Origin: Nannocystis bainbridge
GTDB taxonomy: Bacteria > Myxococcota_A > Polyangia > Nannocystales > Nannocystaceae
Reading direction: 5' to 3'
Length of the DNA stretch: 64,000 nucleotides
Assembly (NCBI RefSeq): GCF_028368995.1
Contig: NZ_JAQNDL010000002.1
Span: 1,344,001-1,408,000 of the forward strand
The position numbers and the translations under genes were made by a program. Under the pieces are notes generated by a model that did not search any database, was not told the origin of the DNA, and worked only from the letters and a program-made list of their open reading frames with translations. Numbering within the stretch: position 1 is the stretch's first letter; the number at the start of each line of letters is the position of its first letter. Below, piece after piece: positions 2,032 through 63,090 of the stretch.

Positions 2032-2847
2032 TCACGGCGGGGCGGGGGCCGGCTCGGCAGGGTTGCTCGGATCGCGGTGAGACGGGTTCGGGCGCCGGTC
2101 GTCGGGCACGCGCGTGGGCGGGGTCGGCTCGCCCGGCTCGCCCGCGCCGGGATCGGCGAGGCCGCCCGGACCCGTGACGCCGTTCCCGCTGCCGCTGCTG
2201 CCGCTGCTGCCGCCGCCGCCCGCGCTGGCCGTGGCCGCGCCGACGGTGGCGCGCACCTGTTCGAGCCCGGCGTCGACCTGCTGGCCGACGATGACGCCGT
2301 ACTCGACGTAAAACCGCGCGCCCTCGAGGAAGCGCGGCGGGCTGGCGAGCACGAGCAGCTGCTGGACGAAGCGCTGCAGCGCGGCGCGATCGATGGTGAG
2401 CGCGTGGGTGCGCGCGAGCACCGACTCTTCCCACTCGTACGAGCGATCCTGCACGGCGGCGGCGGCGGTGCTGGCGGCCACCAGGGCGTCGTAGAGCGCG
2501 AGCTGGCGGGTGCGCTCGGGGTCGCTGGCGATCTTCCAGAAGTGGATCGTGCGGGCGTTGAACTGGCCCTGCTCGGCGATCTGCTGCTGGCGCACGACCA
2601 GGTTGCGCTGGCGCAGCTGGGCCACGGCGGCGCGCGCGGCCGCGAACTCGGCGGTCTCCCGCTCGAGCCGCCCGCCGGCCTCGGCCAGCACCGCGGCCTG
2701 GGCCCGCATCTCACGCGCGGCGCAGCCTGGCGCGAGGGACAGGGCGAACAGGACAGGCGCAAAAGCCCATGTGCGAAGGGACATGGCGGTCAGGCCAGGC
2801 GACATGGCGCCGGGGACATGTCTGAAGATCCATGTGCGAAGGGACAT
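2032..2847 (-). CDS. Helical lipoprotein (start at 2847, 2805 or 2784)
   Basis: Signal peptide and lipobox VLFALSLAPG-C; helical body; Gly/Ser/Pro tail; ATG 5 nt after the upstream stop. Confidence 0.7.
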   Translation of the reverse strand: MSLRTWIFRHVPGAMSPGLTAMSLRTWAFAPVLFALSLAPGCAAREMRAQAAVLAEAGGRLERETAEFAAARAAVAQLRQRNLVVRQQQIAEQGQFNARTIHFWKIASDPERTRQLALYDALVAASTAAAAVQDRSYEWEESVLARTHALTIDRAALQRFVQQLLVLASPPRFLEGARFYVEYGVIVGQQVDAGLEQVRATVGAATASAGGGGSSGSSGSGNGVTGPGGLADPGAGEPGEPTPPTRVPDDRRPNPSHRDPSNPAEPAPAPP

Positions 2848-2851
2848 GGCG
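2737..2851. repeat. 14-bp-phased palindrome array over a start codon/signal peptide region
   Basis: CATG/CAGG cores at 2740, 2754, 2768, 2782, 2796, then a 7-bp slip, then 2803, 2817, 2831, 2845. Confidence 0.85.
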
Positions 2852-2852
2852 A

Positions 2853-61910: not shown

Positions 61911-61947
61911 GCGGCTCCGGGCTTCGGCGCGGGGCCGCTTGCTTTTT
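61911..61947 (+). terminator. Probable intrinsic terminator
   Basis: GCGGCTCCG...CGGGGCCGC stem followed by TTGCTTTTT. Confidence 0.6.
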
Positions 61948-62289
61948 GGCGGCACGCGCATGCGAGTGACGGGGCAGAGTGCTCTGCGGACGCAGGACGA
62001 GCGGCGGCCGGGAGTGACACGGGGAGCTGCGAGGTTTCGCGGGCGCGGCTGCGAGTGACGCGGGGAGGCGCGAGGCGGACGCAGCACCAGCGACCGCTGC
62101 GAGCGGCACCGGAGGCGCGAGCTTCTGCCGCCGCAGGACGTGCGAGGTCTGGGACTTGACGAGGTTGGTGGCGGGCTCGGCCGTCGTGGATCGAGGATCG
62201 TCGCCGTCGGGCGCGATTGACTTCGCGGGCGGCACGAGGTCTGATCGCGCCACGTCGGGCCGCGGGCCCGGCACGCCAAGGAGATCTCG

Positions 62290-63090
62290 ATGTCGCGCGT
62301 CGCTCTGTCTCTCGCTCTCGCGCTCGCGTGGGCTCCGCTCGTCGGCTGTGCCGTGAGCGCCAGCGCCAGTTCTGGCTCGGGGACCATGTCCTCCGGGACA
62401 GGTCCTCAGGGCAAGCCGGCGCGGCGGGTCGACGAGGGCGGAGGCGAGGCCGGCGGGGGCGGGGCTGCACCGGCCGGGCCGCCGCCGTGTCAGCCGGCGC
62501 TGGCCGACGCTCCGACCGCGCTGTTCGGCACGCGAATCCTGGTGCGTTTGCCGAAGGGCGTCGAGCTGGCGGAGCAGAACCCGTTCTACGCCCAGGCGGT
62601 CGCGCCCGACCAGGCGACGAATTGCGGGCAGCCGGTGGCGTACGCGGCGGTCGGCTTCTTCGAGTATCCGAACGCGGCCCCGGCGGCAGTGCGCGACCAG
62701 GTGCTCGAGCTGCGGGGGATCGCCAAGGGCGCGGCGACGTGGGACGACGAGGGGACGCGCGGCAAGACGTACACCGGCGCGTACACGGTGCCGGCCGACG
62801 CGGCCACTGGCGCGCCGGCGGTGCGCGGGTGGTTCGTGCTGCGCGACGCCAACGACAAGTACGGTTACTTCGCGCTCTACGAGACCGACCCGGCCCACTG
62901 GGACGCGCTGAAGCCGGTGCTGGTGGCGAGCGGCAAGTCGCTGCTGGTGAAGCCGCGCATGGTCGCGTCGCCGGCCGAGGCGCAGGTGAGCGCCGCGCCG
63001 CCGCCGACGTCGGGCGGTCTCTCGGCCGAGCCGGCGGGCGCCAAGCCGGCGAAGCCCGCGAAGGACGCGAAGGCCGTGAAGGCCAAATAG
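62290..63090 (+). CDS. Lipoprotein, paralog B
   Basis: AAGGAG RBS, lipobox LVG-C, RLPKGVELAEQNPFYA, GWFVL, YET.P..W.AL. Confidence 0.85.
   Translation: MSRVALSLALALAWAPLVGCAVSASASSGSGTMSSGTGPQGKPARRVDEGGGEAGGGGAAPAGPPPCQPALADAPTALFGTRILVRLPKGVELAEQNPFYAQAVAPDQATNCGQPVAYAAVGFFEYPNAAPAAVRDQVLELRGIAKGAATWDDEGTRGKTYTGAYTVPADAATGAPAVRGWFVLRDANDKYGYFALYETDPAHWDALKPVLVASGKSLLVKPRMVASPAEAQVSAAPPPTSGGLSAEPAGAKPAKPAKDAKAVKAK

Follow-up and report, generated by a model that had tools for sequence, protein, structure and literature searches.

A phased, bipartite 14-bp palindrome at gene 3′ ends and within genes of Nannocystis, a candidate site for a dimeric DNA-binding protein

The stretch of the Nannocystis bainbridge genome analyzed here (64,000 nucleotides, hereafter the window, positions 1344001–1408000 of contig C3 in a 5-contig genome of 11,048,555 bp and ∼71.5% GC; window GC 68–75%) contains many copies of a short bipartite palindrome, TGTCC-N4-GGACA, which stands singly within genes and is joined into phased head-to-tail arrays behind them. 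The motif is highly enriched, rigidly spaced, symmetric and conserved between relatives, shows no covariation at would-be stem positions, has its arrays mostly at gene 3′ ends and is restricted to one genus. With middling confidence, we favor the reading that TG(T/C)CC-N4-GG(A/G)CA is maintained as double-stranded DNA and is recognized by a putative two-fold-symmetric (dimeric) sequence-specific DNA-binding protein. The initial annotation of the window had proposed either such a binding code or a self-propagating micro-repeat; the copies within genes, the strong bias toward gene 3′ ends and the likeness in behavior, though not in sequence, to HIP1 (highly iterated palindrome 1) and to DNA uptake sequences are new.

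The perfect 14-mer occurs nine times in the window, at the eight positions already listed and additionally at 5356. The computed expectation is 0.07, in line with the earlier estimate of well under one copy, and none of 100 dinucleotide-preserving shuffles of the window reached nine copies. Where two copies abut, their outer bases form a 10-mer junction core, GGACATGTCC, which at up to one mismatch is present 33 times in the window (1.63 expected; shuffle maximum 5). The whole genome contains 1987 perfect 14-mers, 956 perfect cores and 12,834 cores at up to two mismatches, compared with 0–65 copies of matched control palindromes (65 for CGTCC-N4-GGACG and 0 for AGTCC-N4-GGACT), and nearly all of the top-enriched 8-mers of the non-coding DNA come from the motif family. 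Chance origin is excluded by the shuffles, the expected counts and the control palindromes, together with the control tetramers and the phasing described below. The possibility of an assembly artefact, raised earlier, was not borne out, because all 10 other Nannocystis genomes contain arrays as well; a 1158-nt short-read contig from run X1, which may be the source sample, also spans positions 29694–30851 with 5 differences and 0 gaps. Runs X2, X4 and X6, which consist of DNA contigs, leave parts of this neighborhood without cover.

The cores are held in a strict 14-bp register. For cores with up to two mismatches, a core-to-core distance of 14 bp is found 2655 times genome-wide, versus 21 times for 13 bp and 10 times for 15 bp, and further peaks occur at 28 bp (1235), 42 bp (953), 56 bp (461), 70 bp (193) and 84 bp (88); peaks at the first three multiples had been predicted, and the series extends beyond them. 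CATG triples in 14-bp phase number 1670, versus 0–6 for GTAC, CTAG, GATC, TCGA, ACGT and TGCA. In total, there are 2063 arrays of at least two phased cores, which cover 80,648 bp, and 954 arrays of at least three phased CATG, the longest with 20 units. In the window, 33 core pairs are 14 bp apart (1 in the reversed-sequence control) and form 21 phased chains of at least two cores; with five isolated perfect copies, this gives ∼26 loci rather than the ∼35 claimed earlier. The longest in-register runs of the window have 11 units (3900–4049) and 9 units (37072–37193). An array of up to ∼15 units, previously placed at 30098–30314, is in reality two arrays (30112–30177 and 30207–30286), which are separated by 39 nt and do not share a register. 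The spacer length is also rigid, with 1987 copies for N4 compared with 8 for N2, 16 for N3, 5 for N5 and 3 for N6.

The weight matrix of the phased units is mirror-symmetric, also when the units are oriented by transcription. CATG is fixed by definition in CATG-defined arrays, and core-defined units show 92–99% conservation of it; the flanks read G70 G69 A58/G32 on one side and T52/C37 C75 C75 on the other, and the junction reads RCATGY (R in 90% at position 3 and Y in 89% at position 8). At the junction, 73% of the cores have the dinucleotide AT, 21% have AG or CT and 1.4% have CG, which makes the half-site GGAC(A>C), with two halves that vary independently. Genome-wide, 38 of 104 arrays mix the two orientations of the non-palindromic junction variant, below the 58 expected if orientation were random. 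The N4 spacer is 55% A+T in a genome of ∼71.5% GC, and its two central bases are correlated (mutual information, MI, of 0.235), N4 being otherwise highly variable, so the earlier statement that the spacers vary freely while the phase is kept holds for the phase but not fully for the spacers. An MI analysis with off-register controls found no base-pair covariation at the would-be stem positions of the phased units: values between would-be pairing partners are 0.008–0.013 across the spacer and 0.001–0.03 within the core, equal to those of the controls, and G-C at the mirror positions 3 and 8 is below expectation. Four findings, namely the absent covariation, a matrix that is symmetric between the strands, the rigid N4 and the synonymous-site conservation of genic copies (see below), favor a two-fold-symmetric reader of double-stranded DNA over selection for a folded RNA.

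Gene contexts, in the window as in the whole genome, rest on calls by our own crude GC3-based caller (6716 open reading frames, ORFs; 78–80% of the genome), and since open frames run through arrays, arrays inflate these calls. Arrays occupy 562 of 1277 convergent intergenic regions (44%), 523 of 3530 tandem regions (15%) and 79 of 1114 divergent regions (7%). In tandem regions (n = 526), the array starts at a median of 47 nt after the upstream stop codon, in 25% of cases within 15 nt of it, and ends at a median of 263 nt before the next start. An array lies within 150 nt downstream of 1462 of the 6716 ORFs (∼22%), and in several convergent regions of the window, arrays take up the whole distance between the two stop codons. 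Arrays are weakly linked to upstream gene length (median 1160 nt versus 1083 nt). Arrays are found on all five contigs at 5–36 per 250 kb, and a search for macrodomain specificity found no array-depleted region on them, including around the GC-skew switch. That switch, from ∼+0.07 to −0.06, lies near 1.5 Mb of contig C3, roughly 100–150 kb past the window; a second one is at the end of C1, and the two may correspond to the replication terminus and origin.

The 1987 perfect copies comprise 1072 intergenic ones, 241 near ORF ends and 674 that lie at least 150 nt inside called ORFs. A local coding signature (GC1/GC2/GC3) surrounds 70% of the isolated interior copies, versus 86% of random coding positions. 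The dominant reading frame of interior copies is xxT GTC CNN NNG GAC Axx, and codon-aligned GTC CNN NNG GAC in ORF interiors has the T..A flanks in 395 of 588 cases, versus 3.5 expected from the bases that usually flank those GTC/GAC codons. Three sites in the window fall in Pfam-matching ORFs, two of them within the matched stretch (GH15 and Cys_Met_Meta_PP) and the third, in a phosphorylase ORF, outside the best-matched stretch.

Comparison of relatives indicates which parts of the unit are kept. Over its 64 kb, the window is collinear with four other Nannocystis genomes. In the comparison of sites with genome G001 (338 kb aligned), the motif has stayed perfect at 11 of 17 coding and 7 of 12 intergenic sites. 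Motif bases at third codon positions are the same in 59 cases and different in 3 (95% versus 77% expected, p = 2e-4), and the outer T/A on codon position 3 is the same in 13 and different in 1 (background 51–57%). Orthologues of 30098–30301 contain phased arrays in 6 of 6 genomes (203, 119, 125, 169, 73 and 106 bp), with flanking genes of 86–93% identity. In the closest pair, G007 and G005, arrays can be aligned unit by unit, with identity at 121/125 positions of CATG, 149/189 of the flanks and 40/61 of N4; the same pair shows 94.5% identity at third codon positions and 89–91% in short motif-free intergenic DNA. Gaps in this pair affect 6 of 381 array positions versus 134 of 2384 in motif-free short intergenic DNA. 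When all 20 ordered genome pairs are pooled, CATG positions are 94.5% identical, compared with 73.7% of the flank positions and 51.4% of the N4 positions.

The suggestion of a self-propagating micro-repeat does not agree with the diversity of the units. Among two-unit blocks, 2323 of 2351 are distinct, the 14 shared blocks fall in large duplicated segments, and adjacent units are barely more alike than others (identical N4 in 3.9% versus 1.2% at random). In-register duplication does happen, as follows from a 42-bp block of three 14-bp units that is repeated 3.0 times at 3923–4046 (95% identity, TRF score 220). Large duplicated segments are located at contig ends (C2:1–2800 and C5:711000–716700) and at C1:4.516–4.534 Mb and C2:3.02–3.03 Mb; one contains a glutathione S-transferase (GST)-like gene that lies between arrays and is present as an inverted pair with a distance of 4 kb. 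These segments may be real repeats or unresolved assembly. A mobile element with an associated gene was considered and rejected: 158 of the 6716 ORFs have an array on each side, and the only recurring family among them is the GST-like one, inside a large duplicated segment.

The sites and arrays of the window are as follows (strand given as '.' for every motif feature).

2737–2851: two phased chains, 2737–2788 (3 cores) and 2814–2851 (2 cores), intergenic.
3900–4049: array of 9 cores over 11 units with CATG, CAGG and CCTG junctions mixed, in a stretch not alignable between species, although the ORF caller extended an ORF across it.
5356–5369: isolated perfect 14-mer in called ORF 5186–6340, for which no Pfam family matched; kept in 4 relatives.
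6539–6604: intergenic array of 4 cores over 5 units.
10131–10154: two phased CAGG-variant cores in the GH15-family ORF 9057–11675, fully kept in 4 relatives.
10808–10821: isolated perfect 14-mer in the Glyco_hydro_15 domain of ORF 9057–11675, in the frame xxT GTC CNN NNG GAC Axx.
12270–12293: two cores, including the perfect 14-mer at 12275, in carbohydrate phosphorylase ORF 11569–13398; in relatives, the half-sites are retained, and N4 and the encoded residues differ.
13432–13552: two arrays (13432–13455 and 13501–13552) that occupy a whole convergent intergenic region; 4 relatives carry orthologous arrays of 4–5 units.
24162–24241: 6-unit array, built largely from CAGG, a non-palindromic variant of the junction, and oriented alike in 5 of 5 genomes (the present one, G001, G010, G007 and G005).
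30112–30177: 5-unit array that begins 7 nt past the stop codon of ORF 29503–30105.
30207–30286: 6-unit array, out of register with 30112–30177, that stops 16 nt short of the stop codon of the convergent ORF 30302–33238.
37014–37193: two arrays, 37014–37051 (3 cores) and 37072–37193 (6 cores, 9 units), adjoining the 3′ end of ORF 37251–40319 (− strand).
44849–44872: two cores, including the perfect 14-mer at 44854, 32 nt past the stop codon of ORF 42421–44817; the same 83-bp stretch is kept in 4 relatives.
49991–50014: two cores, including the perfect 14-mer at 49996, in the TM2-SHOCT interdomain linker of ORF 49605–50162.
51236–51249: isolated perfect 14-mer in a stretch kept in 4 relatives.
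53892–53905: isolated perfect 14-mer a few bases past a stop codon, in a convergent intergenic region.
54095–54108: isolated perfect 14-mer in the Cys_Met_Meta_PP domain of ORF 53991–55172 (− strand; full-length match to this family), kept in 4 relatives.
62382–62405: two cores, including the perfect 14-mer at 62387, in a low-complexity region of ORF 62290–63090, kept in 4 relatives.

The ORF caller overlooked an 865-aa ORF at 6611–9208 (− strand), and the chain at 8638–8675 is therefore probably within a gene, not intergenic. Perfect tandem repeats of hexamers adjoin two of the arrays, GTTGGG ×4.5 (24385–24411) and CGAGGG ×3.8 (37203–37225), the latter kept in G007. At the orthologue of 6341–6640 in G001 (L029–L030), the intergenic region is 850 bp, compared with 300 bp here, and carries approximately four copies of a different ∼20-bp element that contains TGTCTCTTG; G007 and G005 have extra genes at this place, with regions of 1065 bp and 1436 bp. 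When the window was compared with Rfam at the gathering score, nothing matched at the arrays, and the only matches were two + strand tRNA genes (63190–63262 and 63306–63378).

The placement of arrays behind genes bears on an explanation that we consider unlikely, namely a hairpin similar to repetitive extragenic palindromic (REP) sequences and bacterial interspersed mosaic elements (BIMEs), acting in the transcript or in single-stranded DNA and spread by a mobilizing enzyme. Here, neighboring cores would form 10-bp stems closed by 4-nt loops and would end or stabilize mRNAs at gene 3′ ends, which agrees with the strong 3′-end bias and with computed folding: array-bearing convergent regions fold at a median z of −4.3, with 78% below −2 (45 sampled), folding is weaker in core-free convergent regions (z −1.4, 38%) and in divergent regions (+0.2, 11%; 45 each), and the 203-nt RNA of 30099–30301 folds at −98.4 kcal/mol (z −5.48). 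Many convergent regions are so filled with arrays that no space is left for another terminator, and the sense strand has an excess of G·U-compatible variants. However, covariation is seen at no stem position, the best-kept bases are the A+T-rich CATG and not G+C pairs, the loop length is far stricter than folding requires, and one third of the copies are single genic sites that are kept at synonymous positions. No T-run follows the arrays; within 22000–40000, there are 4 terminator-like sites (2.8 expected), none at an array, and canonical intrinsic terminators (G+C hairpin followed by a T-run) were rejected for the arrays of this interval. The near-absence of repeated two-unit blocks speaks against spread by a mobilizing enzyme, as does the lack of any gene family flanked by arrays, and the Y1 transposase of REP systems (REP-associated tyrosine transposase, RAYT; PF01797) is found in 0 of 11 genus genomes, with matches in 6 of 14 control genomes. 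At gene ends, a function at the RNA level may nevertheless contribute.

The behavior of the spacers and of the junction has to be weighed against a by-product of mutation or repair bias without host function, for example methylation-linked short-patch repair combined with 14-bp slippage, which we judge to be very improbable. Methylation-linked short-patch repair that turns near-sites into sites was reportedly once proposed for HIP1. The RCATGY junction, which presumably matches the specificity of a known type II enzyme, would suit such a process, as would the hypervariable, A+T-rich spacers and the signs of in-register duplication (the small excess of identical spacers within arrays and the threefold 42-bp block). 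It sits poorly with isolated copies, which lack CATG yet are equally rigidly defined, with the scarcity of indels in arrays compared with other intergenic DNA, and with the strongly non-random placement relative to gene ends. From similar conservation, the authors of the HIP1 study drew selection rather than biased repair, according to the accessible part of that paper (PMC5861425).

The chromosome-wide distribution is relevant to another alternative, in which the motif would be a DNA-uptake or self-recognition tag, similar to the DNA uptake sequence (DUS) and uptake signal sequence (USS). The preference of a transformation receptor for motif-bearing DNA, together with recombination, would raise its copy number at all places that tolerate it, and the DNA at gene ends would fill up with copies. 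This is in our view a distinctly unlikely explanation, although thousands of copies in one taxon only, spread along the whole chromosome, with about half of them outside genes at gene ends (1072 of 1987 intergenic) and coding copies in favored frames, are features in its support. Cores are also fewer in a 70.5-kb block that is without an equivalent in the syntenic region of G001 and lies on C3, 162,963–233,463 bases past the window start: this region contains 16 cores in 74.6 kb versus 208 in 363 kb (2.7-fold rarer), but the block may merely hold few intergenic regions. Known uptake sequences, on the other hand, are asymmetric contiguous 9–12-mers and not bipartite palindromes, and the drive model does not demand exact 14-bp abutment, as any spacing of at least 14 bp would serve. 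Competence of Nannocystis is undocumented in the literature covered; homologues of ComEC and DprA are present in the genome, which is uninformative as they are near-universal in bacteria.

Returning to a dimeric protein that reads double-stranded DNA, single sites within genes would be tolerated and kept in the least costly reading frame, and in the unconstrained DNA after stop codons the sites would be joined head to tail. The outer bases of adjacent half-sites would then fuse into GGACATGTCC, and neighboring dimers would abut every 14 bp. We infer the reading of the motif by a protein, its cooperative binding to arrays and the coating of the DNA between gene ends, cooperative loading being suggested by the abutment of the sites. 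Arrays may lengthen by in-register duplication of units, with spacers diverging afterwards, and likely roles would be the separation or ending of convergent transcription or the organization of the chromosome or its supercoiling. This part of the initial proposal fits the symmetry, the rigid N4, the lack of covariation and the synonymous conservation.

Several observations count against it. No candidate binding protein was found or shortlisted, which is where the initial proposal falls short. The p53 half-site is the same as the core GGACATGTCC in sequence, and the p53-like domain PF00870 was not found, but control genomes also gave none, so this is little informative. Between G007 and G005, N4 divergence is 35% versus 9–11% in other short intergenic DNA, and the spacers are A+T-rich; binding alone leaves this fast, A+T-rich divergence unexplained. 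The excess of G·U-compatible variants on the sense strand is weak (G at position 3 in 348 cases versus C at position 8 in 273, p = 0.003; T at position 10 in 143 versus A at position 1 in 108, p = 0.03), and together with the strong self-complementarity of array transcripts in computed folding it points to a possible role at the RNA level. Conservation could stem from molecular drive, through uptake bias or biased repair, and not from selection for binding, and conservation was assessed on few loci (17 coding sites, 12 intergenic ones and 10 arrays). In addition, the crude GC3-based caller lengthens some ORFs too far and overlooks others.

Among the genomes compared, the motif is specific to the genus Nannocystis. 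The two-core pattern (up to two mismatches) has 848 matches here and 7–532 in each of 10 of 10 other genus genomes; outside the genus, 2 matches occur in one of 14 genomes from other genera of the family and 0 in 16 genomes of other families. Four phased CATG are found 869 times here, whereas 400 further genomes from the phylum have 0–5 matches each, all of them simple perfect tandem repeats. Five other large Nannocystis genomes contain 409–527 such windows, and five small fragmented ones of the genus contain 1–13. A comparable periodic tetramer was found in neither of two sister-genus samples (200 kb of G024 and 41.6 kb of G022), in which the maximum z of the periodicity scan is ∼4, versus 41 in a 200-kb control from G000. 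In agreement with this range, a protein adjoining one array shares 80–89% identity with Nannocystis (five species or strains) and 36–43% with other Polyangia. Plasmid sequences gave no match to a motif array, and viral contigs gave one, which is a small duplication and not an array. Three successive perfect cores are present in three metagenome contigs, in one of which (L081) the array directly follows a stop codon.

No published description was found in the literature on Nannocystis, Sorangium and myxobacterial repeats or REP sequences, or for GGACATGTCC itself. The main texts of PMC3696898, PMC3372372, PMC12306157, PMC5658511 and PMC3733652 do not mention the repeat, and Nannocystis could figure in the genome lists of PMC3733652 and the RepRanger paper.

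The motif may be the address code of a dedicated genus-specific recognition system, either a tag for self-DNA in transformation or the site of a protein that polymerizes in 14-bp steps along the DNA between gene ends, a suggestion that we make tentatively and consider doubtful. If true, the former would give the first system similar to uptake sequences beyond Neisseriaceae and Pasteurellaceae, and the first with a palindromic, arrayed motif; the latter would provide roughly one gene in five with a terminator or insulator made of protein. HIP1, DUS/USS and REP are among the strongest non-coding signals of bacterial genomes, and the function of HIP1 has been open for decades; a new highly iterated motif from another phylum, in cultivable, large-genome, natural-product-rich myxobacteria, adds a further case. 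Given the rigidity of the motif, its symmetry and its conservation at synonymous sites, pull-down should readily yield a binder, which could then reveal the purpose of highly iterated motifs. In practical terms, the arrays flag gene ends in a genus with scarce canonical terminators.

Known sites of dimeric proteins resemble the motif in form. MetJ met-boxes and omega-protein heptads are short symmetric head-to-tail boxes, each bound by one dimer with cooperative neighbors, but they are few and lie at few promoters, whereas the ∼2000 arrays described here avoid the promoter-bearing divergent regions. Noc-binding sites (NBS), RacA ram sites and parS are 14–16-bp palindromes that are read by dimers and can lie anywhere relative to genes; they number tens in limited regions, in contrast to thousands of copies here with no depleted region.

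CRISPR was rejected, as a 14-bp period, 4-bp spacers and ∼2000 loci do not correspond to repeats of 23–50 bp with spacers of similar length and cas genes. In the accessible parts of PMC2817692 and bioRxiv 10.64898/2026.03.23.713779, REP/BIME are described as regularly spaced palindromic units, extragenic and mostly at gene 3′ ends, and proposed as protein-binding sites and 3′ UTR (untranslated region) elements, and PMC3733652, as far as its accessible text goes, defines REPs as imperfect palindromes of 20–40 bp with a conserved GTAG or CGTC head. Regular spacing of palindromic units is a shared feature. As to location, the arrays agree with this description (44% of convergent, 15% of tandem and 7% of divergent regions), but 674 of the 1987 perfect copies lie inside ORFs. 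The unit here has 14 bp with 5-bp arms, its weight matrix has no GTAG/CGTC head, one third of the copies are genic and none of the 11 genus genomes has a RAYT gene; unlike REPIN- or MITE-type elements (REP doublets and miniature inverted-repeat transposable elements, respectively), there are no near-identical copies from recent copying. A REP/RAYT system was rejected for the missing Y1 transposase, the wrong unit size and the missing head tetranucleotide. The initial statement that the motif differs from the REP/BIME, CRISPR and HIP1 consensus sequences was confirmed for each of them.

According to the accessible text of PMC2817400, uptake sequences have hundreds to ∼1900 copies, 34.5–65% of them in ORFs and with a frame bias, and about half lie in predicted terminators in the part of bioRxiv 10.1101/2025.10.24.684340 available to us. 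As far as these sources reach, DUS of Neisseriaceae and USS of Pasteurellaceae share with the motif its taxon specificity, high copy number, enrichment at gene ends and frame bias in coding sequences. They are, however, asymmetric contiguous motifs in inverted pairs and not tandem arrays of up to 20 units, and their receptors and uptake bias have been shown experimentally.

The accessible part of PMC5861425 describes HIP1 as hyper-abundant within and between ORFs, conserved between genomes and of unknown function, and that of PMC4390886 gives it a known cognate methyltransferase. On this partial record, the two motifs are alike as short palindromes that are many-fold over-represented in coding and non-coding DNA, conserved between genomes and distributed chromosome-wide, and the motif behaves in a HIP-like way in its 1987 copies versus 0–65 for matched palindromes and, in a small sample, in its conservation in G001. 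HIP1 itself is a contiguous sequence, GCGATCGC, of cyanobacteria, whereas the present site is bipartite (5-N4-5) and belongs to another phylum, and HIP1 has not been described in strict-register head-to-tail arrays at gene ends. Such arrays, which here follow ∼22% of the called genes, are absent from HIP1, DUS/USS and REP alike. In summary, none of the compared systems combines a bipartite 14-bp palindrome, conserved single copies within genes and phased arrays of up to 20 units.

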